A stretch of 53,635 bases of DNA. Source: a virus. Taxonomy: Duplodnaviria > Caudoviricetes. The stretch covers positions 1 to 53,635 of IMG/VR virus record IMGVR_UViG_3300027917_000057; one strand, written 5' to 3'. Within the stretch, counting starts at the first letter, position 1, and every line of letters begins with the position of its first letter. Positions 19,603 to 53,635 of the stretch are shown in pieces. The position numbers and the translations under genes are program-made. The notes under the pieces are model-generated. The model was not told where the DNA came from and ran no database searches. It saw only the letters and a program-made list of their open reading frames with translations.

Positions 19603-20559
19603 GTGGGAACGCTGTCGCAGAAGAGTGTCGTGCTGGATGGCTCGAACGAGTACATCGTTGTCGGCAACGTCGCGGCGCTTCAGTTCGAGAGGACAAACGC
19701 TTTCAGTCTTAGCGCTTGGGTCCAGCTCACCAGCACTGGTACGAGAATGGTTTGCGCCAAGGGAAGCGGCAGCAGCGGGTACTCGCTCTACGTCACCAAC
19801 GGCCAGGTCTTTTTTGACCTAGTGAACGCCTTTCCCGCCAACACAATCGAAGTGAGGACAGGCAATGTGCTGCTCCCTACAGGGGCTTGGACACATCTTG
19901 TTGCCACCTACGACGGTAGTTCTACGGCAGCCGGAGTCGCCATCTACTTCAACGGCACCTCTATACCGCTGACGACGAACTACGACACTTTGAGCGCATC
20001 GATCTTGAACGCCAATGCCTTCGACATCGGGCGTCGTTCCGATGGTTACTACTGGGGAGGCGGTATCGACGCGGTGGCCGTCTACAACAAGCAGTTGTCC
20101 GGGGCAGAGGTCACGGCTATCCACAACGGGTACGACCCACCGGACCTGACGGTGACAGGTCCGACAGCGAACCTCGTCGGCTACTGGAAGATCGGAGACG
20201 GGGACACCTACCCCACCGCTACGGATTCAAGTGCTTCGGGTAACAACGGGACGTATACGAACACCGAGAGCACGGACATCGTGAACTATGGGGCGGGCGT
20301 TCAGACCATCGACGACCCGAATCTCCCGTACAACTTCGATTCGCTCGGACTGGCTGGGAACAGCTACGACATCATCCCAACCGGCCTAGATAGTGGTGGC
20401 GGTGCCGCTCCTACCTACTACAAGATGAGGGCCCTTGCTGATCCGGGCCCTGGGTACGTGACGTGGGTCGTCGCTAATACACCTGATTTTGCCGGAACCT
20501 ACGCTCCCAGTGCAATTCAGGCTGGGACAGTAATTGTAGGAGCGTCATGGGTAGGTTGA
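19603..20559 (+). CDS. LamG/concanavalin A-like lectin domain protein (cassette copy 1, gene B)
   Basis: FSLSAWV, WTHLVATYDG, IYFNG, IDAVAVYNKQLSGAEV and LVGYWKIGDG motifs. Confidence 0.8.
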   Translation: MGTLSQKSVVLDGSNEYIVVGNVAALQFERTNAFSLSAWVQLTSTGTRMVCAKGSGSSGYSLYVTNGQVFFDLVNAFPANTIEVRTGNVLLPTGAWTHLVATYDGSSTAAGVAIYFNGTSIPLTTNYDTLSASILNANAFDIGRRSDGYYWGGGIDAVAVYNKQLSGAEVTAIHNGYDPPDLTVTGPTANLVGYWKIGDGDTYPTATDSSASGNNGTYTNTESTDIVNYGAGVQTIDDPNLPYNFDSLGLAGNSYDIIPTGLDSGGGAAPTYYKMRALADPGPGYVTWVVANTPDFAGTYAPSAIQAGTVIVGASWVG

Positions 20560-25900: not shown

Positions 25901-26387
25901 GTCGGCTCTCCCATTCTTGTAAGGGGACTAGGACCCACTGTTCCTGGGTCACTAAGGTGGTGGGGGCTTTGAAGTCGATCTGAAAGACTGGGATCTGCCC
26001 CCGTTCGCACTCTGACCGAAGCTTGTGCAGCTCCGCCCTCGTGACCCTTATGCCCTTCCCGGCAGTGAACTTGTTCTCGATCCTGTACTTCTCGCGAATC
26101 GAGGCATCACTCTTCCGTCCGGGGACGCTGCCAGATCCGATGTTACGGTGGCCTCCGTGGATTTGCGCAACGCGCTCCTCCTGCCGCATGGACGCACGCC
26201 GCCGTCTCTTGAGAGTAGCTCTATCTTCCGCTTCGGGCTTTGATAGAAGGAGCGTCTTTTCTTCCCCATCGCTCATGGGGATGTAGATTTCCCCAGTATA
26301 GCCATCCATTCGCCCCGCGAGATGTAAGAACCAGTTTCCATGCTCGTCGGTGACCAGCCTGGGCAGTACGCTCACCGATACAAACAT
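25869..26387 (-). CDS. PD-(D/E)XK endonuclease, Holliday junction resolvase-like
   Basis: QEERVA...GSGS...KSD...IENK pattern. Confidence 0.65.
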   Translation of the reverse strand: MFVSVSVLPRLVTDEHGNWFLHLAGRMDGYTGEIYIPMSDGEEKTLLLSKPEAEDRATLKRRRRASMRQEERVAQIHGGHRNIGSGSVPGRKSDASIREKYRIENKFTAGKGIRVTRAELHKLRSECERGQIPVFQIDFKAPTTLVTQEQWVLVPLQEWESRLEPTATADDR

Positions 26388-30168: not shown

Positions 30169-30177
30169 TGGACACCT

Positions 30178-30203
30178 ACCCGCCCCCCGAAGGGGGGGCG
30201 GGT
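30178..30203 (-). promoter_or_regulatory. Very stable hairpin immediately upstream of the polymerase RBS
   Basis: ACCCGCCCCCC-CTTC-GGGGGGCGGGT on the minus strand, abutting AGGTG and the ATG. Confidence 0.5.
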
Positions 30204-30218
30204 CCTGTTGATGCCCCG

Positions 30219-34054: not shown

Positions 34055-34063
34055 TCTTATGCC
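34055..34063 (-). promoter_or_regulatory. GGCATAAGA promoter-like box (partial copy of the bipartite motif)
   Basis: Exact 9-mer shared with 39121 and 50467; the upstream box is degenerate; intergenic, upstream of the helicase. Confidence 0.55.
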
Positions 34064-36107: not shown

Positions 36108-36510
36108 TGTAGTTACCTCCTCTAGGTATCTCGGTCGCTAGCGTTATGCCAGCACGGGCCGCTTTTGCGCGTTGGATCTCCTCGGTCTTGGCAGCGCGTG
36201 CCCCGTTGTACTTCAGCCTCTCGTCTGGGGTCATATCGCTGAAGAGCCGGAGAACGTGGATCTGCAGGAGAACCTCGACGAAGTCTTCGGCCCCATCAAT
36301 CAGGCACGGTAGGGAGATGGGGCTGGTAGCGACCCCCTGCGGGGTAGGTACGGCAACGATGGAAGGCCTGAGCTCAAAGCATTCGGTCATTCGACAGACG
36401 TCCCCGGGCTTGGCGTTGGCAGGAACCTTCCCGATGAAACGGGTACCTCCTGAGTGAACTATTGCGAGAACAGGTGCGTCAGGCTGGTTGGTGCTTGTCG
36501 GTTTGTCCAT
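36079..36510 (-). CDS. Hypothetical protein
   Basis: Start placed at ATG 36510; small beta-barrel-like pattern followed by a helix. Confidence 0.5.
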   Translation of the reverse strand: MDKPTSTNQPDAPVLAIVHSGGTRFIGKVPANAKPGDVCRMTECFELRPSIVAVPTPQGVATSPISLPCLIDGAEDFVEVLLQIHVLRLFSDMTPDERLKYNGARAAKTEEIQRAKAARAGITLATEIPRGGNYNGGFKPPTS

Positions 36511-39120: not shown

Positions 39121-39152
39121 TCTTATGCCTGTGCAATTCCCTTTCTTGCGGC
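39121..39152 (-). promoter_or_regulatory. Bipartite promoter-like motif GCCGCAAGAA-N13-GGCATAAGA
   Basis: Both boxes and the spacer length are identical to the copy at 50467-50498; divergent intergenic region. Confidence 0.7.
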
Positions 39153-39209
39153 GCACAGGCTACTCTTGCAGGAAGAATCCCGAGCGGTTACGCTGCCCAC
39201 GAGGAGAAA

Positions 39210-41543: not shown

Positions 41544-42687
41544 CAAACAGGTCCTCCTCGCCTTCGAGAGGGAGCTCGAGAAGAACGCGTTTCTAGGGGC
41601 GGTTCTCTCCAAGGCGGCGCCGTTGACGTCCAAGCTATCCCCCGCCCTTCAATTCATTCGCAGGGGTGCAGGTAGCGCCGGTGCTGGAATGGGGCTGGGA
41701 ACTGCCACTGGTGCAGCTGGAGGAGCTGCCATTGGGGGCTACAAGGGTTACCGTGAGGCCAAGGAACAAGGGCAGAGCGGGGTAGCTGGGGCCCTGGGAG
41801 GGGCAGCGAAGGGTGCTGGCACCGGTGCGATGGTGGGGGCCGCCACAGGTTTAGCCGGGGGCATGGCCTTGGGGGGTACGGGGACGCGGCTTGGGCAGTC
41901 CCTTCAGAACCTAGGGCAGGCTAGCAACCCCCTTGGGTCCATAGCGCGCTTTGGGCAACGCCAGCTACACGGTGTCACGGGTCTGACTCCCGGTGGCGCT
42001 CAGCGGGGGACCGCCGAGTACGCCAAGGCCATGGCTGGGATGCGGATGGGGGCTCACCCAGCGGCGGCTGGCGTGCTGGAAGCCGAGATGGCTGTCGCCC
42101 GAGCCGGAACGAATCCCAAGCTCCTAGAAAAAGCCACGAAGGCTTTGGAGTCTGCAAAGTCCCAGCACGCCATCGCTCAGGAAGCCGAAGCCAAGGGGCT
42201 GACCAGCCTACCAGGAATGGTGCGATCCATGACCTCCAAGGAGGGGATCAAGGACGTCTGGCGCCTGGGTATGAAGCCGCAGCTAACGCAGCAGGGTATG
42301 ACGGGTAAGATGATGGCAGGGCTCCCAGTGGCCTTCGCTGCGCCAGAGCTCTTTAGGTCCCAGGAGCAGGACCCTGAAGGTCGGGGGCGCCTCGAGAGGT
42401 TTGGTAGTGGCGTAGGCAGCGGTGTGGGCTACGCCCTGTCCCCGTTCCTGCCTCTTGTTGGGCAGGAAGCAATGGGACGAGCTGTCGGAGGGGTAGGAAA
42501 AGGTCTGGGCAAGGGTGTGGACATGGCCATCGGCGCCCTCCGAGGGAAGAAGCCGCAACCTCCCATGACCGAGCTCGGCAACAATCCTTCGGCTCCTGGC
42601 GTCGATCCTTCAGGGATGAATGAAGCTGTGCCTAGAATCTACTCCAATGCAGCGCAGGGCAAGCCGCCGGAAGGCATGATGATATGA
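41530..42687 (+). CDS. Gly/Ala-rich putative internal virion (ejection-type) protein
   Basis: 385 aa; glycine-zipper-like GAAGGAAIGG segments; N-terminal AFERELEKNA leader. Confidence 0.5.
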   Translation: MAAIDKQVLLAFERELEKNAFLGAVLSKAAPLTSKLSPALQFIRRGAGSAGAGMGLGTATGAAGGAAIGGYKGYREAKEQGQSGVAGALGGAAKGAGTGAMVGAATGLAGGMALGGTGTRLGQSLQNLGQASNPLGSIARFGQRQLHGVTGLTPGGAQRGTAEYAKAMAGMRMGAHPAAAGVLEAEMAVARAGTNPKLLEKATKALESAKSQHAIAQEAEAKGLTSLPGMVRSMTSKEGIKDVWRLGMKPQLTQQGMTGKMMAGLPVAFAAPELFRSQEQDPEGRGRLERFGSGVGSGVGYALSPFLPLVGQEAMGRAVGGVGKGLGKGVDMAIGALRGKKPQPPMTELGNNPSAPGVDPSGMNEAVPRIYSNAAQGKPPEGMMI

Positions 42688-44741
42688 GCTTCACGGGTGG
42701 GAACTTCGCCTTCGGAGCAGGTGGTGCCTCCAGGTTTCATACTGGGTTTACCAGAGGGCGCATCGGGGGTGCCGCCCACGTTCAGGGTGTCAACTACCCG
42801 AGCCCCTTCTTCGACATCGCGCACACCTACCTGCCGACGACTGTCAAGCAGCTGTTCCAGTTCTGCCGTTACTACTATCTGACGAATCCGCTGATCAACG
42901 CCATCGTCCAGAAGCTGTCCGAGTACCCAGTCACGGACATCATCATCGACCACGAGGACCCAAAGGTCGTGGAGAAGTGGAAGGAGTACTTCTACGACAC
43001 GGCCAGAATCAGGCCGTTCCTGGTGGAGTGTGGCCTCGACTACAACTGCTATGGCAACGCGGCAGTAACCCTGAGCTTCCCCTTTCAGAAGTACCTCAAG
43101 TGCGACTACTGCGGATTCAACGAGCAGGCCAGAAAGATACGAAACAACTGGACATACACGAGCAACGAGTTCCGGTTGTCCTGCCCCCGTTGTGGGCACA
43201 CTGGCGCGGCTACTCCAAAGGACTGGTACTACAAGGACGCGTCTGGCATTCGACCCGTTCGCTACAACGTCGAAGACATCGAGGTTGAGTACAACCAGAT
43301 CACCGGCGGCTACACCTACTTCTTCACCATCCCGGCACCCATGCGGGCGGATATCACCCTCGGGAAGAAGGATGTCGTCGAGCAGATGCCGCAGATCTTC
43401 CTGCAGGCAATCCGGCAGCAGAAAGGCGTCATCTTCAGCAAGTCCAACTTCTTCCATCTGAAGAGGGCGACCATTGCTTGGCAGGACAGAGGGTGGGGAA
43501 TCCCATTGATCCTCCCGGTTCTCAAGGACGCGTTCTATCTGCAGGTCATGAAGAAGGCCCAAGAGGCAATTCTCGTAGAGCACATCGTTCCTCTACGCGT
43601 CTTGTTTCCGCAAGCAGCGTCTGGAACCAGTGACCCCTTCACGACCATCAACCTAACGGAGTGGAGAGACCAGGTCGCTGCCGAGATCGCTCGATGGCGT
43701 TTCGACAACAACTACATCCCCATCATGCCGTTGCCTCTGGGGAATCAGAGCATCGGTGGGGATGGCAAGGCCCTTCTACTTCAAGGAGAGATGCAGCAGC
43801 TCGGTGAGCACATCATCATGGGCATGGGCGTCCCTAGAGAGTTCCTGCAGGGTGGCCTGAGCTACGCCGGCACTAACGTGTCCATGCGAATGCTGGAGAA
43901 CGCGTTCATCAGCTACATCAGCCGTCAGCGACAGATGGCTGTATGGATCATGAAGATGGTCGCGCACTTCATGGGGTGGCCTGAGGTGGGTATCCGCTTC
44001 AAGCCCTTCAAGATGGCGGACGACCTTCAGCGAAAGAGCTACCTCTTCCAGCTCAACCAAGCGCAGAAGATCAGCGACACGACCCTTCTGGCGGATGCGG
44101 ACTTGGACATCAAGGAAGAGAACGAGATCATGGTGCGGGAGAGCGCGGAGCGCATCCACGCGACCAAGAAGCAGCAGATCGCGATGGCCGAGATTCAGGG
44201 AGAGTCTCAGGTCATCATGATGAAGTACCAACAGAAGGCGCAGCAGGCCATGATGGCCGCGCAGGCTGGACCGCAGGCGCCAGGAGAGCCGGGGGGTCCA
44301 GAGGGTCAGATGGGCGTAGGACAGGCCCAAGCACAGGCCCAAGAGGGGGAGCAGGCAGCAGCCCAGGCAGGAGGGCAAGGAGGGCAGCCTCCGGCGCCAC
44401 CTGCTGGCCCGCCTCCAGCGTCTCTGCCTCCCGAGCCCGGGGCTTCTCAGACCGTACCTCAAGAGGCGCAGTCACTACTAGGAAACGACCAGCAGTCTGG
44501 CGTGGACATCGTTCAGATGGCTGAGATGTATGCGACCCAGATCTCCCAGATGCAACCGCCGGAGCAGCAGGCGGCTCTGGCAGCGCTCGAGGCGCAGAGT
44601 CCAGAGCTGGCGCAACTGGTTCAGCAGTTCATGGGGCTTATGCAGGGAGGGCAGGCAGGGCAGGGGTTGGTCGATACCGGAGTAGATCAGCGCCCCCTCC
44701 CTGAGCAGCTGCCCGCCCGTAGGCAGTCGCAGTTGGTGTAG
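42684..44741 (+). CDS. Putative portal protein with a zinc-ribbon insertion and a Q/P-rich tail
   Basis: YYYLTNPLINAIVQKLSEYP, DYNCYGNA, FHLKR...RGWGIPLI and IIMGMGVPREFL follow the portal-family layout. Confidence 0.7.
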   Translation: MSFTGGNFAFGAGGASRFHTGFTRGRIGGAAHVQGVNYPSPFFDIAHTYLPTTVKQLFQFCRYYYLTNPLINAIVQKLSEYPVTDIIIDHEDPKVVEKWKEYFYDTARIRPFLVECGLDYNCYGNAAVTLSFPFQKYLKCDYCGFNEQARKIRNNWTYTSNEFRLSCPRCGHTGAATPKDWYYKDASGIRPVRYNVEDIEVEYNQITGGYTYFFTIPAPMRADITLGKKDVVEQMPQIFLQAIRQQKGVIFSKSNFFHLKRATIAWQDRGWGIPLILPVLKDAFYLQVMKKAQEAILVEHIVPLRVLFPQAASGTSDPFTTINLTEWRDQVAAEIARWRFDNNYIPIMPLPLGNQSIGGDGKALLLQGEMQQLGEHIIMGMGVPREFLQGGLSYAGTNVSMRMLENAFISYISRQRQMAVWIMKMVAHFMGWPEVGIRFKPFKMADDLQRKSYLFQLNQAQKISDTTLLADADLDIKEENEIMVRESAERIHATKKQQIAMAEIQGESQVIMMKYQQKAQQAMMAAQAGPQAPGEPGGPEGQMGVGQAQAQAQEGEQAAAQAGGQGGQPPAPPAGPPPASLPPEPGASQTVPQEAQSLLGNDQQSGVDIVQMAEMYATQISQMQPPEQQAALAALEAQSPELAQLVQQFMGLMQGGQAGQGLVDTGVDQRPLPEQLPARRQSQLV

Positions 44742-44743
44742 TC

Positions 44744-46210
44744 ATGCTCTGGGAGGCGTTTGCTGACGAGCTCATCAAGATCTCGGCAGTCAAGACCGAG
44801 TTGAAGCCCCATCAGCAACGGGTTGTTGATAGGGTCCAAAGAGAGGATCAACCAGGGCTAGTAGTTGCGCACGGGCTAGGCTCTGGAAAGACCCTCACGG
44901 CTATCGCTGCGCAGGATGTTCTTGGGATGCCGGCAACGGTAGTAGTTCCTGCGGCTCTACAGGCGAATTACCTAAAGGAGCTCGATAAGCATCTAGAAGG
45001 AACCTCTCCTGAGGCAGCGTTGACCACCCTACAGCGCGTTTCCAAGGCGGGCCGTTTGGGGGCGTCTAACCCTCTTCTGGTTGTAGACGAGGCTCACCGA
45101 GCTCGAGAGGTCAACACCAAGACATACCAGGCGCTCAAGAACAGCATTCCTGGTACAGAAAAGCGTCTTCTGCTGACAGCCAGCCCCTTTTACAATCGAC
45201 CGAGTGACATTGCACCCCTCGTTAACCTAGCCGCCGGAGAGAAGGTACTTCCAGCCGACCCCACAGAGTTTAAGAGCAGGTACATCAGAGAACGTAAGGT
45301 CCAGCCTGGGTTCATCGCGCGTGTTCGCGGAGTAAAACCTGGGGTTGTGGAAGAGGTCGACCCCTTTCGCGCTCCCGAGCTTCGTACGGTCTTCCGCAAG
45401 TGGGTGGACTACCATCCAAGCTCTACAGAAGGATTTCCGTCGGTACAGCGCAAGACTGTAGAAGTCCCGATGACGCAATCTCAGCTGAGGGCCTATGACG
45501 CCATGATGGGCACCGCTCCGTACTGGGTGGCGGCCAAGGTCAAAGCGGGGCTTCCTCCGGACAAGAAGGAGGCGCAGCAGCTCAATGCTTTCGTAAATGC
45601 GGTGAGGCAGATATCGAATACGACTCGAGCCTTTGCTCCCAATAAGGCGCCAGAGGAGCCAAAGATCGATGCGGCGTACAAGCGTTTGCAGAGTACCCTA
45701 ACTTCGACGCCGACAGCGCGTGCAGTCGTGTACTCCAACTATCTGAAGAGCGGCATCGAGCCCTACAAGGAGCGGTTGGATAGGGCAGGCATCCCCTACG
45801 GCGAGTTTACCGGAGAGATGAAGAGGCGAGAGCGGGAGCAGCTTGTACGCGACTACAATGATGGAAAAAAGAAGGTTCTTCTGCTGAGCTCCGCGGGCGG
45901 GGAGGGGCTTGATCTAAAGGGAACCAGGCTGATTCAGATTCTAGAGCCGCACTGGAATGCAGAGAAGCTTAAACAGGTGGAGGGCCGCGGCATCCGCTTT
46001 GGGAGCCATGCTCACCTCCCAGAAGAGCAGAGGAATGTAGTGGTTGAGAACTACCTTGCGACGCGTCCTGAGAGGAAGGGCATGGCAAGGGTATTGATGG
46101 GGCGCAGTACGGGCGGTAGTGTGGACCAGTACCTCACTGGGATGAGCGACCGCAAAGAGGGCTTGGTCCAACAGATGAAGTTGCTGCTGCCTACTGAAAC
46201 GGCAGGCTAA
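44744..46210 (+). CDS. SNF2-like SF2 helicase/ATPase
   Basis: HGLGSGKT, VVDEAH, LLLTASP, AGGEGLDLKG, EPHWN, QVEGRGIR. Confidence 0.9.
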   Translation: MLWEAFADELIKISAVKTELKPHQQRVVDRVQREDQPGLVVAHGLGSGKTLTAIAAQDVLGMPATVVVPAALQANYLKELDKHLEGTSPEAALTTLQRVSKAGRLGASNPLLVVDEAHRAREVNTKTYQALKNSIPGTEKRLLLTASPFYNRPSDIAPLVNLAAGEKVLPADPTEFKSRYIRERKVQPGFIARVRGVKPGVVEEVDPFRAPELRTVFRKWVDYHPSSTEGFPSVQRKTVEVPMTQSQLRAYDAMMGTAPYWVAAKVKAGLPPDKKEAQQLNAFVNAVRQISNTTRAFAPNKAPEEPKIDAAYKRLQSTLTSTPTARAVVYSNYLKSGIEPYKERLDRAGIPYGEFTGEMKRREREQLVRDYNDGKKKVLLLSSAGGEGLDLKGTRLIQILEPHWNAEKLKQVEGRGIRFGSHAHLPEEQRNVVVENYLATRPERKGMARVLMGRSTGGSVDQYLTGMSDRKEGLVQQMKLLLPTETAG

Positions 46211-46248: not shown

Positions 46249-47559
46249 CTACTCTGGAAGTATTGGCGGCTTGAGAGCCTGGTTCTTTTCGCAGACGACA
46301 ATGTGCCCCCAGTTGGCGGGCTTTCTAGCCCAAGGGGTTCGGACTACACACCAGATTACGTCCATGCCTCTCGGAGGAGCTGCTGGTGCAACTCCGTCGC
46401 CGTCAGTGATGTAGATCACGAGATTGGGCCGCGGTCGTAGCTTTACTAGCTTCTCGAAGGCGATTCTGAAGTCGGTACCGCCTCTACCATGGAACCCCAG
46501 ATTGGGTATCTGCGCTGCGCGCACCTGCTGGCAGTAGTGGACGTCTACGTCGACGTGTAGCAACCAAATCTTGTCGGAAGTGATCTTCTTGGCGATGTGG
46601 AAGCTTTCGTTGTGGGCATCTTGTAGCTGATCGGGCCCCATGGACCCCGAGGTGTCCACCACCACTGCTGCCACGATTGGGCGGTCCACAAGTCCGCTCA
46701 GCAGCGCGCCAGTAAACATGCCTGTCATGGAGGGGCGCTGCATCGAATAGTCACGAGCACCTGCTCGGATGGCTCCGGAGGAACGTCTGGCAACTTGCCT
46801 AAATTTTTGGCGCCAGTTGACGTCTGGGGGTTTGATCTTGGTTTTGATGAGCTCGTGGTACCGGCCCGGAACGGACCCCCTACCGTGTGCTTCTATGTAC
46901 TGCTCGATGTCCTCCAGCGTCTTTCTCCTGATGGCTTCTACCTCGGCCGGGCTCTTGCCGTACTGAGCGTCTAGCTCGGCTTCGAGCTCCGCGTTCGAGG
47001 CGTGGCCCCCGCCGCCACCACAGGTTCCTTGCGCGACGCCGATCTGTGGCTGACCTTCACCTTTACCCTTCTTCTCCGCCGCCTTGGCCCTCAATTGGGA
47101 AATGGTGATCTTCTGCTCCGCACACATCTTCTGGAGCTTGTCGTAGTACCACTCCAGGTTCTTCCCGCCTGGGAGCCCCACGTCTTCGGGGTAGATGCCG
47201 CAATCAGGGAGCTCCTCGCCTTCCTCGCGCAGGTCGTAGTTAATGGCCCTATCGCCGGCGTCGTTGGCCAGCTCTAGATCTGGTAGGGCCTCCAGCCGGT
47301 CTATCCCTCGGAGCGGGTGCTCGAGCTCATGGCGTACCAGCCCTGCCATCTTTGCGTCGGTATCGACATAGGGGCTGCGTAGAACGAAGTCTGCCCCTAC
47401 GTACAAGACCAGATGCTTGGTGATCCCCATAGTGACGCCAGGTGTATTGACGACCACAGGAGTCAGGTTGAGCAGAGTTTCCGCTACGTACTCGGTCTTC
47501 TCCAGAATAGCCGCTCTAGCGAGCGCCAGACGGTGAAGGATTGCGGCCTCGTCGTCCAT
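46249..47559 (-). CDS. DUF2201-type metallopeptidase + VWA domain protein
   Basis: HELEH motif; MIDAS DTSGS, GRGGTDF, YITDGDG. Confidence 0.88.
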   Translation of the reverse strand: MDDEAAILHRLALARAAILEKTEYVAETLLNLTPVVVNTPGVTMGITKHLVLYVGADFVLRSPYVDTDAKMAGLVRHELEHPLRGIDRLEALPDLELANDAGDRAINYDLREEGEELPDCGIYPEDVGLPGGKNLEWYYDKLQKMCAEQKITISQLRAKAAEKKGKGEGQPQIGVAQGTCGGGGGHASNAELEAELDAQYGKSPAEVEAIRRKTLEDIEQYIEAHGRGSVPGRYHELIKTKIKPPDVNWRQKFRQVARRSSGAIRAGARDYSMQRPSMTGMFTGALLSGLVDRPIVAAVVVDTSGSMGPDQLQDAHNESFHIAKKITSDKIWLLHVDVDVHYCQQVRAAQIPNLGFHGRGGTDFRIAFEKLVKLRPRPNLVIYITDGDGVAPAAPPRGMDVIWCVVRTPWARKPANWGHIVVCEKNQALKPPILPE

Positions 47560-48821
47560 TACGACCTCTTTGCGCGTAGGATGTACTCGAGCATACCGTT
47601 GTCATTGAGCTCCGCGCAGACCTCTTCAGCAGCATCCGCTACTTGCTCCGAGGGGCAGTCCGAGTCCAGTCTCGCGTGAATCAGAACACGAGCGGGCTGG
47701 ACCACTATGTCGGAGTAGCCTTTGTCCATGCACTTTCTAAGCAGGTCCCAGCATTGTTTCGCTCGTTTGAACTTGTCTTGTGCGTCCTCTTGAGAGACCA
47801 CGAAGTTGACGCATCCTCCCAGAACAGCTCGGACGATGTCCATGCGCTTCGGGATGGACCAACGCCCATCCAGGGCATCCTCTGAAGATGGGAGATTCGC
47901 CTTCTTTCGGTAGGCAAACCATTCTACCGCCAAGCCCTCGCCTACTAGGGAGGAGGCCACATCGATGTGGACCGTCTCGTCCATCTCTAGGCAGGTGGCG
48001 GCGGTGGTGCCGAATACCAGAAGGGACCAAGTTCGAGGAGTCGGCCATGGCTTTGACGCTCTGGGGTCGTCGGGGCCCGGCGGGTTGTAGAACTTGCTGA
48101 CCTCGTGGGTCTCTTCCTTACCGCCCTCGGAGAGCTCCTTGACGATGTGCAGCCCACCGTTGTCCTTCAAGAAGCCGGCAGAGATGTGGAGCTCCTTCTC
48201 GAAGTTCTCCGCCCAGGTGCTCTTGACTTGCTTCTCTGCGTCCTTGAATGAAGGAAGCCCTAACTCCAGCTTCCCACCGGGGGCAAGGCTGCTCATGTAG
48301 TTCTCCCACTGAGGGATAGTGGGGTTGATGTAGTTCTGGTGCCCTGCTCGATTCATCATAGGGATGGTTAGCTCCTGGCCATTCGCTGCGATGTCGGGAG
48401 GGTTCATCGCCATGATGATGCGTACAGACGGAGGCAGCACGTACTCTCCTACCTGACGTTCGTTTATGAACGAGAGAAGAGCTGCCTGTACAGCACCCGG
48501 GGCCGTGGAGATCTCATCTAGGAACAGGCAGGCTTTGCGCACATCAATGGCACTTACCACCTGAGGAAGGATGCACTCGATGCTGAACCCGTTGGGTCCT
48601 ATGACGGGCACACCGGAGAAGTGTTCAGGTTGTTTGGTGCTGCTGTAGATGGGGAAGCAGTACAGCTCTAGTGCTTTGCAGATCTGTCCAAGGCGCGCAC
48701 TTTTAGCTACGCCTGAACCTCCAATGATGTTGAACGGCACCCCCCAATTGGTGAGCACCTCGTTGGGGTTACCAAGAGGCGCCATCAAACAGGTAAGTGC
48801 GAACTTCGTGAATTTATCCAT
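47559..48821 (-). CDS. MoxR-like AAA+ ATPase
   Basis: GGSGVAKS, LFLDEIS, AMNPP, NR and PTPRTW; coupled to the VWA gene. Confidence 0.85.
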   Translation of the reverse strand: MDKFTKFALTCLMAPLGNPNEVLTNWGVPFNIIGGSGVAKSARLGQICKALELYCFPIYSSTKQPEHFSGVPVIGPNGFSIECILPQVVSAIDVRKACLFLDEISTAPGAVQAALLSFINERQVGEYVLPPSVRIIMAMNPPDIAANGQELTIPMMNRAGHQNYINPTIPQWENYMSSLAPGGKLELGLPSFKDAEKQVKSTWAENFEKELHISAGFLKDNGGLHIVKELSEGGKEETHEVSKFYNPPGPDDPRASKPWPTPRTWSLLVFGTTAATCLEMDETVHIDVASSLVGEGLAVEWFAYRKKANLPSSEDALDGRWSIPKRMDIVRAVLGGCVNFVVSQEDAQDKFKRAKQCWDLLRKCMDKGYSDIVVQPARVLIHARLDSDCPSEQVADAAEEVCAELNDNGMLEYILRAKRS

Positions 48822-49104
48822 GCCGCTCCTTCAAGTACTCACTAACTTCTTCCGCCCACTCTCGGGGTAGAACTGTGACAACGCAGTCGTCTTTGATGAC
48901 TAAGAAGCCCTCCTCCGAGTCGAGCTCGAAGGGTACATAGAGCCCGCCCGGTGCGCGCACGTATGTGTTCGCTGCGCGGGCGGACTCGATGCTAGAAGCG
49001 AGCCACTCCAGTAGGGCTCGCTTTGAAAGAGCAGCAGCTGTAGGCCACCGTTCCTTCATTCTTTTGAAGGCGTGAGCGGAGACGTAATGTTTTCCGATGC
49101 CCAT
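48814..49104 (-). CDS. Small protein with an SxHAxxRxxER motif (DUF4258/RelE-like pattern)
   Basis: VSAHAFKRMKERW...LVIKDDCVVTVL; start placed at ATG 49104. Confidence 0.5.
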   Translation of the reverse strand: MGIGKHYVSAHAFKRMKERWPTAAALSKRALLEWLASSIESARAANTYVRAPGGLYVPFELDSEEGFLVIKDDCVVTVLPREWAEEVSEYLKERHG

Positions 49105-49670
49105 TGCCACGCCCTTTCGTGCTTGCAGACGTGCTCGCACTCACCCGTGCGCCAGCAACGTTCCTCCACGCCGAGCTCGCACTCTCCGTTGTTCCGTACT
49201 GGCTCGTCCCAGTACTCCCTGCATTCGACGTTCAGGGTGTTCAGGCAGCAGGTACAGAGGTAGTAGGGCTCGCCTCGTGGCAGGAACAGTACAGAGCGCT
49301 CCCCACTGTCTGGCTGCCTCTCATCTAGGTGTAGCGCTCCAAACTCGATGAGGCCAACTAGCTCGCCGCTTATAACGCTGCTCATGCAGACGTCACACTG
49401 CCGCAAGTGCGGATGCGCCTTGTCTGGTACCGCTCCGTAGATGGTGTTTGCTAGGTCTTCCTGATCCTCCTCCCAACAGTCGGTACACAAGAAGTAGGGG
49501 AGGTAGACGTATTCTCCCTTACAGTCCAACTGGTCGTACAGGAATACGCCTTCCTCGTTCTCATAGATTCGGTGAACGCGGAGGCAGAAGATTTCTTGTC
49601 CTAGTTTGATCTCCTCCTCGCATGCACCGCAGGTATGCCCACTAGAGCTGGGCTTCAAAGTTGTTCCCAT
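49056..49670 (-). CDS. Cys-rich multi-zinc-finger hypothetical protein
   Basis: CGAC, CTDC, CDVC, CTCC plus C-terminal Cys residues; start placed at ATG 49670. Confidence 0.6.
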   Translation of the reverse strand: MGTTLKPSSSGHTCGACEEEIKLGQEIFCLRVHRIYENEEGVFLYDQLDCKGEYVYLPYFLCTDCWEEDQEDLANTIYGAVPDKAHPHLRQCDVCMSSVISGELVGLIEFGALHLDERQPDSGERSVLFLPRGEPYYLCTCCLNTLNVECREYWDEPVRNNGECELGVEERCWRTGECEHVCKHERAWQWASENITSPLTPSKE

Positions 49671-50248
49671 CTGATCCGTTCCTCTTCGACGCGCTTCCAT
49701 CGATACTCAAGATTATCGAGACTGGGGTCTGGTCCGAGCCCGGTAACAGGGTCTGCATCCCAAAGAAGGATGTCGTGGCGCTCAACGTCGTTTTTGTCTG
49801 CGCGGTGAATGCGGCGAGAGATCGTTGTCTCTGGTAGTACACCCCACTGATGTTGTGCCCGCAGATTCAACTCTCTTGCAAAGAGGTCATCTGCTAGGTC
49901 AATGTCGTCTACGAACAGACCGATCCAACCGTCGGCCTCATCGTTGACGTAAGAGTACTTCTCTCCCGTCCAGGGGCAGTACTGACCCCCCTTTGCCAGG
50001 CCCAGTAAGACCTCTAGGTCACGCTGGTTGCAAAAGGAGATGAAGCCCTTCTGATCGGTGAGGTGAACACGCAGCCCCCCGATGGCGCGGCCAGGAATGG
50101 GAGCGTAGACACCATCGATGACCCAGACCCGCTCGGACGTCACGGGGTCCTCGAAAGAACAGCCCATGAGTCCGAACGCGTCTGAAAGGAACCGCGTGCC
50201 GGGGATAGGGGCTAGGAGGTCGTTCTCCCTAAACGGGTGAACGATCAC
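49655..50248 (-). CDS. Hypothetical protein
   Basis: Start placed at GTG 50248, downstream of AGGAGG. Confidence 0.6.
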   Translation of the reverse strand: MIVHPFRENDLLAPIPGTRFLSDAFGLMGCSFEDPVTSERVWVIDGVYAPIPGRAIGGLRVHLTDQKGFISFCNQRDLEVLLGLAKGGQYCPWTGEKYSYVNDEADGWIGLFVDDIDLADDLFARELNLRAQHQWGVLPETTISRRIHRADKNDVERHDILLWDADPVTGLGPDPSLDNLEYRWKRVEEERIRWEQL

Positions 50249-50329
50249 GTTCCCTCCTACGCCCCTCTTCGATGCACCATGCCAGCGCACCTTCGAGGAG
50301 GCCTAGGATTAGACCCCACAGGATTATCC

Positions 50330-50446
50330 CTAGCACTCTTCCTCCTTTTCTTCTTGCTCCTCCTCCTTCTGTTCTTCTTCGTTGTCATCGTCGTCTCGAG
50401 GAGTCATGAACAACTCCTCGACATCTTCCTTGATGCCAGGACCCAT
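50330..50446 (-). CDS. 38-aa highly acidic peptide (not in the ORF track)
   Basis: AAGGAGG-N6-ATG; MGPGIKEDVEELFMTPRDDDDNEEEQKEEEQEEKEEEC*. Confidence 0.6.
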   Translation of the reverse strand: MGPGIKEDVEELFMTPRDDDDNEEEQKEEEQEEKEEEC

Positions 50447-50466
50447 GGGGGGCCTCCTTCCATAGT

Positions 50467-50498
50467 TCTTATGCCGTCTCCACCGGTGTTCTTGCGGC
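50467..50498 (-). promoter_or_regulatory. Bipartite promoter-like motif GCCGCAAGAA-N13-GGCATAAGA
   Basis: Same boxes and spacing as 39121-39152; divergent from the RNAP gene. Confidence 0.7.
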
Positions 50499-50536
50499 AG
50501 TGAAGTCGCGTAGAGTACGCTAACCGCAGGGACTAC

Positions 50537-53500
50537 ATGGCGTATCTAGACCCCAAAGAAGCAACCGCTGACCTCAAGGCTGGCGTCCTCGAAGGAATCA
50601 AGAGCCACTTCCCGTTGAAGGGGAGGAACACGACTATTCACCTAGAGGGGATCCACGCCGACGAGCACAAGGCTGACCCAGAGGACGTATCAGGGCAGCA
50701 CGAGGCAAAGGTAAATGGTCGTACGTGGGCAGTGCCCATCATGGCGACGCTCGTCATGAAGGACAATGAGACGGGTAGGGTTCTAGAGAAGAAGACGATG
50801 AAGGTCGGTGACCTTCCAACGATGACGAAGCGGTTCACCTACATGGTGGATGGTAACGAGCTACAGGTAGATAACCAGTGGCAGCTCAAGCCAGGTGTCT
50901 ACACGAGGCGCCGGCAATCTGGGGAGCTCGAAGCGCAGTTCAACGTACCCAATAGAAGGTCATTCGACCTGACCTTCAACCCCGAGAAGAAACTCTTTCG
51001 CATGTCACGGGGAGACTCTGATGCCATCCCTGTGTATCCGCTTATGAAGGAGCTGGGGATAGATGACGACACACTTGAGAAGCATTGGGGGAAGGAGATT
51101 CTGGCAGCGAACAAAGCAGATCGCGGCGTCGCCACAGGGCTGGAGAAGTTCTTCAAGGTAGACAAGAAGAGAGCTCCGAAGGACCTACAGGAGGCCCGTA
51201 GCTACTTCCACGAAGTGATGGCGGACTCGAAGCTCCGTCCAGAGTCTACGGAGGTCACGCTGGGTAAGGGCTTCAGCAACATCAACGGTGAGGTGTTTAC
51301 CCGCGCCACCAATAAAATGCTGGCGGTACAGAACGAGGGTGCCCCCGAAGATGAGCGCGACAGCCTGGTCTTCAAGAACTTGCGAACCACAGGCGACTAC
51401 GCCAAGGACAAGCTAACCTCATGGAACGTTCAGAAGTCTGTGGGGTACAAGGTACGGCGGCAGATCAACAAGCCTGGCGCCAGTATCCGCGAAGTCATCC
51501 CTACTGGTCTGTTCAACGACCAGGTGCGATCTACCTTTACCGACAACGCGTTGGCGCGTACTGCGGATCAGGTCAACCCCTTGGAGATGATGTCGTCTAG
51601 TTTTCAGACGACCATCATGGGCCCAGGCGGCATCCAAAGTGAGCAGGCCATCAAGGACGAGGCCAAGCTCATCAGCCCCAGCCATCTAGGGTATCTGGAC
51701 CCGATCAACACACCCGAGGGAGGTAAGACGGGTGTGACGCTGCGCCTTCCGCTGGGTGTGCGGAAAGAAGGGGAAAGCCCCACAGTTCCTGCGTTCAATA
51801 TCCGTACGGGGAAGATAGAAAGACTCCCTCCCAAGACTTTCCATGACTCCACGATCGTGCTCCCAGACCAGGTACGTTGGCACAAGGGCCGTCCGGTTCC
51901 TGTGAGCAGCGAGGTCAATGTCTCGGGCACGGGTAATCAGATCGAGAAGCAGCCGTTCAAGAAGGCGGACTACGTGATGGTTAACTCCTCTCAGATGTTT
52001 GGGGTTACCAGTAACATGATTCCCTTCCTTGGGAACAACTCGGGCAACCGGGCTAGCTACGCTACTAGTCAGATCGAGCAGGCCATCAGCCTCAAGCACA
52101 GGGATGCCCCACTGGTACAGGTCGGCACGGGTCGTCACGACGAGACCTTCGAGGACTTCATCGGAAAGAACTCTGCCCAGCGCGCACCTGTGACCGGGAC
52201 GGTCGTCGGGGTAACGAAGAGTGCCGTCCACATCAAGGACAGGACTGGTAAGACCCACAAGGTTGGGCTCTACAACGACTTCCCACTGAACGACCAGAAG
52301 GCCGTTCTTGATTCTATGCCGGTGGTGAAGGTAGGAGACAAGGTCAGTGCCGGAGCCGTAGTCGCAGACAACAACTTCACCAAGGAGGGGAAGCTGGCGC
52401 TTGGCGCCAACCTGCGCGTCGCCTACCTTCCCTTCAAGGGGTACAACTTCGAGGACGGCGTGGTCATCAGCGAAAGCGCTGCCAAAAAGATGACCAGCAT
52501 CCACCTACATAAGCCCGAGATCTCAGTAGGAGATGCGGTATCAGATGTGAAGCGCTACCGGATTCATCATCCTGAAGCCTTCACTACGAAGCAGCTAGAG
52601 AAGTTGACCGACAACGGCGTGGTCAAAATTGGGCAGAGAGTGCTGCCAGGAGATCCGCTGGTACTCGCTACCAAGCCCTACGAGCTCAGGGACCGTAACA
52701 GCATCGCTCAAGTTCGCAAGAGCCTGACTAGTCAGCACACGGACGCTAGCCTGGTCTGGAAAAGCGATTACCCCGGTACTGTTGTGGGCGTCCACATGGA
52801 CAAGTCGGGTAAGACTCGAGTCCATGTGAAGACAGAAGAGCCTATGCAGCTGGGCGACAAGATTGCCGGTCGTCACGGAAACAAGGGCATCATCACTGCG
52901 GTACTTCCGGATCATGAGATGCCGCACACAGCGGACGGCAAGCACATTGAGATGGCGCTTAACCCTGCAGGCATCCCTGGGCGCATGAATATGGGTCAGG
53001 TGCTCGAGACCGCAGCCAGCAAGATTGCAGAGAAGACCGGTAAGCCTTTCGTAGTTCAGAACTTCGAGTACGGTGTCGATCAGCTAGACCGAATCAAGAA
53101 GGAGCTGAAGAAGCATGGGCTGAGTGACCAGGAGGAACTCATCGATCCTGTGAGCGGGCAGAAGCTGGGTAAGGCTCTGGTGGGCCCACAGCACATCCTC
53201 AAGCTGAACTTCCAGATCGACAAGAAGGTCAGCGCTCGAGCAGGAACTCCGCTCTTAGGCAGCGAGCCCGAGAGCTACGACATGAATCTGATTCCTTCGG
53301 GTGGAGGAAAGACCGGCGCGCAGTCCATGGGAAACATGGGGATGTACGCCATGCTGGCACATGGTGCCAAGGCAAACATCCGGGAGATGCAGACCTGGAA
53401 GAGTGAGGGAGAAGACCCCCGTGGTCGGTGGAACTCACAGCACAATCAGGTGTGGCGAGCTATCCAGACGGGTGACTACCTTCCCGCCCCCAAGAAGACG

Positions 53501-53635
53501 TTCGCCTTCCAGAAGTTCGAGGACATGCTTCGGGCTGCTGCGATCAACGTCGAGAAGAAGGGGCACAACATCCAGCTCACCCCCATGACGGATGGGCAGA
53601 TCCTGAGCATGAGCGCAGGAGAGATAAAAGATCCG
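50537..53635 (+). CDS. Phage multisubunit-type RNA polymerase, beta fused in frame to beta-prime (truncated by the window end)
   Basis: One frame for 1033 codons, checked at several motifs: GYLDPINTPEG, IPFLGNNSGNRA, GYNFEDG, GDKIAGRHGNKG, NPAGIPGRMNMGQ, then IQLTPMTDGQILSMSAGEIKDP. Confidence 0.92.
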   Translation, partial: MAYLDPKEATADLKAGVLEGIKSHFPLKGRNTTIHLEGIHADEHKADPEDVSGQHEAKVNGRTWAVPIMATLVMKDNETGRVLEKKTMKVGDLPTMTKRFTYMVDGNELQVDNQWQLKPGVYTRRRQSGELEAQFNVPNRRSFDLTFNPEKKLFRMSRGDSDAIPVYPLMKELGIDDDTLEKHWGKEILAANKADRGVATGLEKFFKVDKKRAPKDLQEARSYFHEVMADSKLRPESTEVTLGKGFSNINGEVFTRATNKMLAVQNEGAPEDERDSLVFKNLRTTGDYAKDKLTSWNVQKSVGYKVRRQINKPGASIREVIPTGLFNDQVRSTFTDNALARTADQVNPLEMMSSSFQTTIMGPGGIQSEQAIKDEAKLISPSHLGYLDPINTPEGGKTGVTLRLPLGVRKEGESPTVPAFNIRTGKIERLPPKTFHDSTIVLPDQVRWHKGRPVPVSSEVNVSGTGNQIEKQPFKKADYVMVNSSQMFGVTSNMIPFLGNNSGNRASYATSQIEQAISLKHRDAPLVQVGTGRHDETFEDFIGKNSAQRAPVTGTVVGVTKSAVHIKDRTGKTHKVGLYNDFPLNDQKAVLDSMPVVKVGDKVSAGAVVADNNFTKEGKLALGANLRVAYLPFKGYNFEDGVVISESAAKKMTSIHLHKPEISVGDAVSDVKRYRIHHPEAFTTKQLEKLTDNGVVKIGQRVLPGDPLVLATKPYELRDRNSIAQVRKSLTSQHTDASLVWKSDYPGTVVGVHMDKSGKTRVHVKTEEPMQLGDKIAGRHGNKGIITAVLPDHEMPHTADGKHIEMALNPAGIPGRMNMGQVLETAASKIAEKTGKPFVVQNFEYGVDQLDRIKKELKKHGLSDQEELIDPVSGQKLGKALVGPQHILKLNFQIDKKVSARAGTPLLGSEPESYDMNLIPSGGGKTGAQSMGNMGMYAMLAHGAKANIREMQTWKSEGEDPRGRWNSQHNQVWRAIQTGDYLPAPKKTFAFQKFEDMLRAAAINVEKKGHNIQLTPMTDGQILSMSAGEIKDP

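Follow-up and report, generated by a model that had tools for sequence, protein, structure and literature searches.

The window analysed here is the whole of IMG/VR record IMGVR_UViG_3300027917_000057 (53,635 bases; Caudoviricetes; CheckV completeness 29%), and the gene of interest is one for an RNA polymerase (RNAP) that runs off its 3′ end. We conclude that this gene is very probably the 5′ half of a phage gene for a bacterial-type RNAP in which β and β′ form one chain of ∼2150 amino acids (aa). The open reading frame (ORF) begins at ATG 50537 on the plus strand and remains open, for 1033 codons without a stop, to the last base (50537–53635), just as an earlier reading of the letters alone (the sequence-only reading) had described, and would represent the N-terminal ∼48% of a protein of the family length of ∼2150 aa. 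Its start codon is sound, since the first residues are shared with relatives. Three parts can be distinguished, all on the plus strand: a β (RpoB-like) module, residues 1–1006 (50537–53554), delimited by Pfam and PDB matches, alignment with Escherichia coli and a family profile; a joint of five residues, 1007–1011 (53555–53569), defined by alignment of 19 diverse members, conservation over 101 and a structure model; and the start of a β′ module, residues 1012–1033 (53570–53635), equivalent to E. coli β′ 20–41 by alignment and model superposition, and cut by the end of the contig.

The β module is a divergent homologue of bacterial RpoB

The window protein exceeds the Pfam gathering scores both for RNA_pol_Rpb2_6, the catalytic barrel with the hybrid-binding region (E 1.1e-63, 216 bits against 23.4), and for Rpb2_3, the fork (E 2.3e-8, 34.5 bits against 21). 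The best matches to PDB sequences are bacterial β chains (E 2e-78), and the NCBIfam rpoB model PRK00405 is matched at E 5e-114. Matches to this model (382 bits) and to TIGR02013 (346 bits) fall short of the equivalog cut-offs of 896 and 801, which makes the protein a homologue but not an orthologue of the cellular RpoBs, to which it is only 24–32% identical. The domain search proposed in the sequence-only reading thus bears out its claim of RpoB-type motifs, and places them in residues 1–1006.

The active-site block GDKxxGRHGNKG is present as GDKIAGRHGNKG and aligns to E. coli β 1055–1080. Two consensus sites singled out earlier as divergent, NRASYATSQIEQA and GAQSMGNMG, do align with conserved bacterial blocks in the comparison with PDB chains, and do differ from them. 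The module retains the cores of Rpb2 domains 3 and 6, the flap and the GDKxAGRxGNKG block; the family profile, set against E. coli, lacks the insertions SI1 and SI2. At its end, residues 976–1006 correspond to E. coli β 1308–1338, close to the C-terminus at 1342 (score 29, reached by 45 of 2000 shuffles). The β module of the window gene is complete.

Four positions in E. coli β, D516, H526, R529 and S531, are rifampicin resistance positions. The window protein keeps Asp at the first and has Ser, Gln and Thr at the other three, and from these pocket residues the enzyme is probably insensitive to rifampicin.

The joint between β and β′

Residues 1012–1033 align without gaps with E. coli β′ 20–41 (score 34, reached by 2 of 2000 shuffles), and five residues separate them from the β-like tail at 976–1006. 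Only about 26 β′-like residues lie inside the window, of which these last 22 align with E. coli. Both short matches are modest on their own; the joint is firmly placed because the full-length relatives are collinear and the junction of a 79%-identical relative superposes on known structures. In a family profile built from 101 full-length members, E. coli β 54–1313 falls on positions 22–987 and β′ 150–1348 on positions 1097–2120, and the window protein matches positions 1–1039 of 2154 with 1791.9 bits, collinear from residue 1 through the joint. The Pfam domain Rpb1_1 is matched in a 73%-identical relative (P0002) from profile position 5 at residue 1009, with an E-value of 9e-5 that is below the cut-off.

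The junction was modelled with AlphaFold on residues 880–1500 of the 79%-identical relative (L010) from a 42-row alignment. The model has a mean predicted local distance difference test (pLDDT) score of 87.1 and a predicted template modelling (pTM) score of 0.82, with pLDDT of about 88–97 in the joint block, and shows a β-hairpin (strands 123–128 and 131–136) spanning the joint. Model residues 128–575 superpose on E. coli β′ 16–499, for example on 6xl5_D with Z 24.1 and a root-mean-square deviation of 3.0 Å over 417 aligned residues; model residue 128, which is L010 residue 1007, aligns to E. coli β′ residue 16. The joint has a constant length, conserved residues and an unbroken frame in all 19 diverse members inspected, two cultured phages included, and no variable linker is seen across the family. 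It is therefore an integrated turn and not a floppy linker: the C-terminal strand of β leads through a turn of five residues into the strand equivalent to E. coli β′ residue 20. The stop-free passage from a β-like end into a β′-like start, the central claim of the sequence-only reading, is upheld by both the alignment and the relative's model.

In principle, errors of assembly, frameshifts or the decay of a pseudogene could mimic such a fusion, and the read depth in public runs is indeed low, at about 4–5 per contig piece. Against this stand the continuous frame over the joint in 19 of 19 members, two of them independently sequenced cultured phages, the conservation of the junction residues, and eight contig pieces on 50037–53635 from one run (X1) that show no letter differences from the window. 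We regard an artefact as scarcely credible. A metagenome scan returned relatives and no longer contig identical to the window. When contigs of four public runs (X1–X4) were set against 50037–53635, identical pieces came from X1 and X2, which are one sample, and from X3, another study; these pieces are short (155–791 bases), and among those listed the last ends at 53618, none being shown beyond 53635. In X4, 6 of 30 bins were covered, mostly over the conserved GNKG block.

Full-length relatives

A search for longer proteins gave 569 matches among 4601 candidates of 1809–5000 aa. The 120 matches listed share 54–73% identity with the window protein, have lengths that mostly come to about 2150 aa, and without exception contain both PF00562 (β) and PF00623 (the β′ catalytic domain). 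The Asp-triad word [NG]ADFDGD is found in 113 of 122 longer relatives, as NADFDGD in 97 and GADFDGD in 16, the remaining nine having neither exact word. The nearest relative, L010, lies on a 12-kb metagenome contig; its uninterrupted ORF of 2158 aa is 79% identical to the window protein and carries GADFDGD, and upstream of it are the same three genes as in the window, on the opposite strand. P0002, at 73% identity, is an uninterrupted ORF of 2155 aa in which β domains are followed by β′ domains with [NG]ADFDGD. The viral genome G001 (L017; 191,220 bases, judged 100% complete) has a single fused RNAP gene of 2059 aa at 46% identity, and no second copy was found in it.

In these relatives the chain runs on through the β′ clamp, the Asp-triad motif, the bridge helix, the trigger loop and a second zinc site. 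Full fusion of the window gene is deduced from them because the window stops 22 residues into β′, and we are highly confident that this gene, too, would continue to ∼2150 aa. The description of a compact, divergent, single-chain enzyme of cellular type, offered in the sequence-only reading, thus holds directly for the relatives of 2158, 2155 and 2059 aa and, through them, for the window gene. The family is large, with hundreds of database entries, and belongs to a little-studied group of phages of ∼180–200 kb.

Several members (P0005, P0019, P0031, P0073 and others) are 300–900 aa longer because they contain intein/LAGLIDADG domains (PF14528, PF14890, PF03161), and in Vibrio phages D148 and D181 the RNAP gene is broken by a homing endonuclease. 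Insertions of these kinds fit a highly conserved, essential target gene.

Fully fused and split members of the family

Four cultured phages, Salmonella phage Arash and Vibrio phages D69, D148 and D181, encode relatives that are 34% identical to the window protein; these retain a homologous β–β′ joint but stop β′ beyond its catalytic domain. In Arash (OQ632216.1) gp206 (1525 aa) covers family profile positions 14–1503 and the separate gp216 (606 aa) covers positions 1507–2133, which puts the cut near E. coli β′ 552. D69 has an ORF of 1527 aa closely followed by one of 609 aa, a candidate C-terminal part of β′ by position. Database members of ∼1430–1550 aa show the same form, for example P0140 on a 212-kb contig, which branches next to the fully fused clade. 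Since Arash- and D69-type members share the joint, it is common to the whole phage family, within which the fully fused members, the window among them, make up a single clade.

The existence of this architecture in Arash, D69 and members such as P0140 allows the window gene to be read in the same way, as β plus the N-terminal half of β′ (about 1450–1530 aa) with the C-terminal part of β′ encoded separately. The window protein, however, falls within a fully fused clade (14 members, support 100), and its nearest relatives have 2158 and 2155 aa, so that a split gene is very unlikely here.

Arash and G001 also have homologous major capsid proteins (MCP), TerL and portal proteins. Arash has a FliA/WhiG-like sigma factor and D69 a weak r4 match; neither has a match for α, and the genomes of these cultured phages are about 180–187 kb. 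The paper on Arash names gp206 the ‘beta subunit’, and the text of it that was available does not mention a fusion (PMC10585845).

Elements retained and lost

Alignment of the family profile to E. coli provides an inventory of elements. The family keeps the lid, the clamp-helix and rudder region, the Asp triad, the bridge helix, the β flap, the GDKxAGRxGNKG block, the second zinc site (DCG...C...C..C) and the N-terminal half of the trigger loop. It is without the E. coli insertions SI1, SI2 and SI3 and without β′ residues 1–19. Cysteine is absent from the N-terminal region of β′ in 97 of 101 members, where E. coli has C70, C72, C85 and C88; the Cys4 zinc-binding domain therefore appears to have been deleted.

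Phylogeny and phage context

Trees relating the window protein to cellular and phage RNAPs, as the sequence-only reading had called for, were built on the β part. A FastTree analysis of 72 rows (26 phage sequences, 36 bacterial RpoBs, and an archaeal and eukaryotic outgroup) places the phage sequences in one clade, with support of 100 and a stem of 1.07, outside the 36 sampled bacterial RpoBs, which are monophyletic at 99. IQ-TREE with LG+G4 on 39 of the 72 rows gives the same three-way split.

The surroundings of the gene are those of a phage. Sixteen of the 49 window ORFs match G001 in collinear order (window 27–53635 against G001 82.6–44.5 kb). Pfam matches identify a PolA, a DnaG-type primase, a DnaB-like helicase, a RecA-like protein, a uracil-DNA glycosylase, two helicases (one of the SNF2 family), a MoxR-AAA/VWA pair, a pyrophosphatase, and PKD- and lectin-domain proteins. 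Of 30 large window ORFs compared with Pfam, 17 gave no match, and ten large ones matched no PHROG; tRNA genes are absent from the window. A portal protein homologue is encoded at 42684–44741 on the plus strand (tblastn to Arash gp204, ‘portal protein’, 30% identity, E 5e-81). In the window, in G001 and in Arash, and probably in D69, where a 593-aa ORF is the candidate by position, a portal gene is found no more than 6 kb upstream of that for the RNAP; the two adjoin in Arash and in G001, whose portal homologue is at 49.4–50.8 kb.

These results bear on the possibility that the gene is a cellular rpoB or rpoBC, present on a bacterial or chimeric contig or recently captured from a host. The best PDB and NCBIfam matches are indeed bacterial RpoBs, and fusion models are matched as well: the window protein gives E-values of 7.7e-75 and 3.8e-65 with PRK09603 and PRK14844, the models of natural RpoBC fusions in Helicobacter and Wolbachia. 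Their cut-offs are far missed (252 bits against 5372, and 220 against 4632), identity to cellular proteins is low, and the protein falls outside the sampled bacteria. The contig, moreover, follows the gene order of a complete viral genome, has genes for a portal protein, PolA, a primase and DnaB, and shows no rplL/rpoC-type host synteny. A cellular origin of this kind is next to impossible. The sequence-only reading had named two outcomes that would speak against a phage fusion, a stop codon shortly after 53635 followed by a separate β′ gene, and a position inside a cellular RpoB clade with host synteny; neither was encountered, since the tree position is outside the sampled bacteria and the synteny is that of a phage.

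Comparison with known polymerases

The cellular RpoBC fusions have the same fold, catalytic elements and β-then-β′ order as the phage family, and differ in size, their models having about 2840–2890 positions against ∼2150 aa. Compared with bacterial core RNAP, the phage family is without a detected α or ω partner, the β′ zinc-binding domain and β′ residues 1–19.

Membership of the T7-type enzymes was rejected. A split enzyme of the ϕKZ/AR9 type was also rejected: one ORF spans β and the joint, full-length relatives are uninterrupted, and relatives have genes of the sigma-70 family. On both counts the sequence-only reading was right. The ϕKZ/AR9 RNAPs, as the parts of the sources consulted describe them, are β/β′-related two-barrel enzymes with no α or ω, of which one set is packaged in the virion (PMC7598289, PMC7824862); in contrast to the window family they are divided among 4–5 polypeptides, have diverged much further and come without a factor of the sigma-70 family. 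For YerA41 and Staphylococcus jumbo phages, similarity to the window protein is confined to parts of it, at about 25% identity. Crass-like gp66, YonO and the tape-measure-fused RNAP of P23-45 do have both barrels in one chain, and some are injected with the DNA, according to the portion of the source seen (PMC10770324). These single-chain enzymes have no detectable similarity to the COG0085/COG0086 profiles in the searched text of PMC7481178, whereas the window family is RpoB/RpoC-like throughout.

Among the closest published systems is mReC, a set of 97 metagenomic Caudovirales contigs, partly from IMG/VR, whose β and β′ match COG hidden Markov models (HMMs), which contain NADxDGD and which form a clade apart from Bacteria (Weinheimer & Aylward 2020, PMC7481178, seen in part). 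That topology is the one obtained in both trees here, and features of the group (Caudovirales, β and β′ matching cellular profiles, a clade apart from cells) are found for the window lineage, which may be part of it, directly for β and through relatives for β′. The earlier remark that such lineages had been reported from metagenomes therefore fits this paper, but not as regards the fusion, since ‘fused’ and ‘fusion’ occur in its searched text only for crAssphage (PMC7481178). The eight mReC capsids detected matched PF07068, gp23-like, in the same text. PF07068 has no match in G001, and none in the controls either; the MCP of Arash, of 307 aa, matches an HK97-fold model below the cut-off.

Reviews of jumbo-phage RNAPs and phylogenomics of tailed phages describe, in the text available, only split, sigma-less enzymes (PMC7598289, PMC7824862, PMC13282480, PMC11835377), and our literature search, from which subscription journals and supplements fell outside, found no paper on a bacterial-type fused β–β′ phage RNAP. 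As far as we have found, the RNAP of this lineage is thus partly published, and the fused joint, the loss of the zinc domain, the lack of detectable α and ω, and the FliA-like sigma factor with its promoters are apparently undescribed.

Sigma factors and other partners

The sequence-only reading had advised a search for sigma- and α-like genes, and this gave a divided result. Sigma genes were found in relatives, two in G001, one in Arash (gp10) and weakly one in D69, but none in the window, and α was found in no record. The α domain PF01000 was absent from all four records searched (window, G001, Arash, D69), and PF01193 and the ω domain PF01192 from the two records searched for each, with controls matched in 14 of 14 cases. 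A match for α is thus absent from all three complete relatives searched, and one for ω from G001, the single complete relative searched.

One of the G001 sigma-like genes is an ORF of 192 aa at 157.9–158.5 kb, with matches to r2 (2.9e-6), r4 (2.7e-18), TIGR02937 (over the cut-off) and the NCBIfam FliA/WhiG model (5e-27, below the cut-off). Arash gp10 matches FliA/WhiG at 7e-12 and has a separate, second homologue in G001 at 118.7–119.3 kb; D69 gives a weak r4 match. The two different sigma-like genes of G001, both located beyond the part of G001 that shares synteny with the window, hint at a two-stage sigma programme. The gp10-like gene (∼118.7–119.3 kb) is near a homologue of the Arash cell-wall hydrolase. 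A complex prediction of the G001 sigma factor with β′ residues 985–1480 of another family member (P0123), made without controls, scored 0.00 and speaks neither for nor against binding.

A further possible partner is the SNF2-family helicase encoded at 44744–46210 on the plus strand of the window (Pfam Helicase_C 6.5e-17, SNF2-rel_dom 4e-11). It is 39% identical to Arash gp217, whose gene comes directly after that for the C-terminal part of β′, and we infer that it may be an RNAP-associated factor.

Promoter-like motifs

A motif resembling a sigma-28 promoter recurs in this lineage. G001 contains 33 copies of GGTATAAG against 2.0 expected (maximum 4 in 30 Markov simulations), 28 of them on one strand. 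Upstream, at a fixed distance, is a G-a-A-A-a element in which A is present in 32 and 31 of the 33 sites, and at 24 sites a Shine–Dalgarno (SD) sequence and the start codon of an ORF of at least 40 aa follow within 80 nt. In the window GGCATAAG occurs four times, all on the minus strand, and the bipartite form GCAA-N14-20-GGYATAA three times against 0.09 expected, a number reached by none of 100 shuffles. The bipartite copies are at 50468–50495 (GCAA-N16-GGCATAAG), 39122–39149 (N16) and 36144–36168 (N14), and further copies of GGCATAAG at 34056–34063 and 26047–26054; all are on the minus strand and point along blocks of minus-strand genes. The copy at 50468–50495 is in the divergent region beside the RNAP gene, on its upstream side; it faces the opposite way, with an acidic ORF of 38 aa and the ORF 49655–50290 ahead of it. 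L010 has this motif at the same place with the same spacing, and the G001 analogue is GnAA-N16-GGTATAAG. The sigma-28 promoter is given, in the part of the source seen, as (−36)TCTAAAG(−30) and (−15)GCCGATAA(−8), and its distance from the A-tract to ATAA is the 19 nt of the phage motif (PMC12784957). We read the bipartite motif as the putative promoter class of the phage FliA-like sigma factor.

The RNAP gene has a different upstream element. CTTGCGG-N18-TACGCT at 50491–50521 on the plus strand, 16 nt upstream of the start codon, is a weak candidate for its promoter; CTTGC(A/G)G-N17/18-TACGCT matches the window twice against 0.18 expected (2 reached by 2 of 100 shuffles), the second copy being at 39165–39194 on the plus strand, upstream of ORF 39527. 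L010 has CTTGCGG-N18-TACCCT at the same place, and the word CTTGCAG occurs twice upstream of the G001 RNAP gene. A sigma-70 consensus scan of 48800–50700 gave no sites.

The small, very acidic 38-aa ORF (50330–50446, minus strand), which has an SD sequence, is directly downstream of the motif at 50468–50495, and a similar acidic ORF with the same first residues, judged by eye, is on the reverse strand of L010 at ∼3560–3690. It is a candidate early protein. In its SD region the G-run at 50447 has one base fewer in one contig each of X2 and X3, which is either a difference in homopolymer length or, the depth being low, an error of assembly.

Proposed mode of action during infection

The following scheme may be proposed. 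RpoB-like and RpoC-like modules would be translated as one polypeptide of ∼2150 aa that forms the phage catalytic core. The covalent joint, placed where the chain ends meet in cellular RNAP, would yield a core that assembles by itself, a suggestion prompted by the lack of an α match in the three complete relatives and of an ω match in G001. Promoters would be chosen by the phage FliA/WhiG-like sigma factor reading GnAA-N16-GG(C/T)ATAAG. By analogy with Arash, virions may carry the enzyme, which may then initiate the early transcription.

Whether the RNAP is packaged is about evenly balanced. Mass spectrometry of Arash virions gave 3516 spectra for gp206, the highest of all proteins, and 1210, 467 and 1148 for gp216, the sigma factor gp10 and the helicase gp217, as stated in the text seen (PMC10585845). 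Such abundance argues for packaging, as do the position of the RNAP gene beside the portal gene in three lineages and the absence of sigma-70-type promoters upstream in the consensus scan. Ribonucleotide reductases and RNA ligases were likewise detected in these virions, and the authors consider that enzymes may have been carried over into the preparation (PMC10585845, in the part consulted). An enzyme that acts only after infection is thus a serious possibility, if somewhat short of an even one: the host RNAP would transcribe the gene early, as with T7 gene 1, the phage RNAP and sigma factor would serve middle and late genes, and nothing would be packaged. This course agrees with the conserved element, distinct from GGYATAAG, that precedes the RNAP start codon by 16 nt in the window and in L010, and with the single RNAP gene of G001, unlike the separate virion and non-virion enzymes of ϕKZ-type phages.

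The boldest form of the proposed scheme is a self-contained machine, in which a core free of α and ω is packaged close to the portal with the FliA-like sigma factor and the SNF2 helicase, injected, and fires promoters of sigma-28 geometry without the host; no simpler sigma-dependent RNAP would then be known, and the enzyme would represent a deep sister lineage of all bacterial RNAPs. Taken whole, this is speculative and on balance improbable.

Several points weigh against the interpretation developed here. The window stops 22 residues into β′, and the β′ Asp triad of the window gene lies beyond the data. A profile of the junction only (family positions ∼960–1130) matches the ends of E. coli β and β′ no better than 600 shuffles do. 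The absence of α and ω rests on Pfam HMMs, which a divergent analogue would escape, and Pfam sigma searches found no sigma gene in the window, which is 29% of the genome. The trees, made without mixture models, include few bacteria, which were selected for their similarity, and have a long phage stem. In the window GGCATAAG alone is weakly enriched (4 against 0.98 expected; 4 reached by 2 of 100 shuffles), another polymerase may read the bipartite motif, and the RNAP gene's own, different upstream element would also fit expression after infection. To these is added the carry-over allowed by the Arash authors.

Other features of the window

Between the SNF2 helicase and RNAP genes is a pair of minus-strand genes, for a MoxR-type AAA_5 ATPase (47559–48821) followed by a DUF2201 metallopeptidase/VWA protein (46249–47559). 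The pair is conserved in L010 and in a further relative (L011), and has no tblastn match in G001. The ORF at 27–4457 (plus strand) encodes a 1476-aa protein with a weak PKD-like match (25.9 bits against a cut-off of 27) and a G001 homologue at 81.4–82.6 kb, and that at 19603–20559 (plus strand) encodes a 318-aa Laminin_G_3/ConA-like lectin protein, with a sub-threshold Pfam match to a neurotoxin receptor-binding family whose fold is likewise that of lectins. Both are likely to be virion-surface or fibre proteins. A G+C-rich perfect palindrome (C-run, GAA, G-run) at 30169–30218, between PolA and the minus-strand gene that follows, is a candidate terminator-like or protein-binding site.

Implications

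To our knowledge, the phage RNAPs studied so far are of three kinds: single-subunit enzymes of the T7/N4 type, divergent single-chain two-barrel enzymes (crAss, YonO), and the multi-piece enzymes of ϕKZ and AR9. The present family is a fourth solution, a near-canonical bacterial β–β′ core in one chain, stripped of lineage-specific insertions and of the zinc domain. The window by itself adds modestly to this, being a single, truncated example from a family that has hundreds of entries in databases. Since cultured members exist (Arash, D69), the questions raised are open to experiment now. If the conclusions drawn here hold, the family would provide a minimal, one-gene, sigma-dependent RNAP with which to probe the need for α and ω and the evolution of sigma–core recognition, and would be a natural, alignable outgroup to Bacteria for deep RNAP phylogeny.

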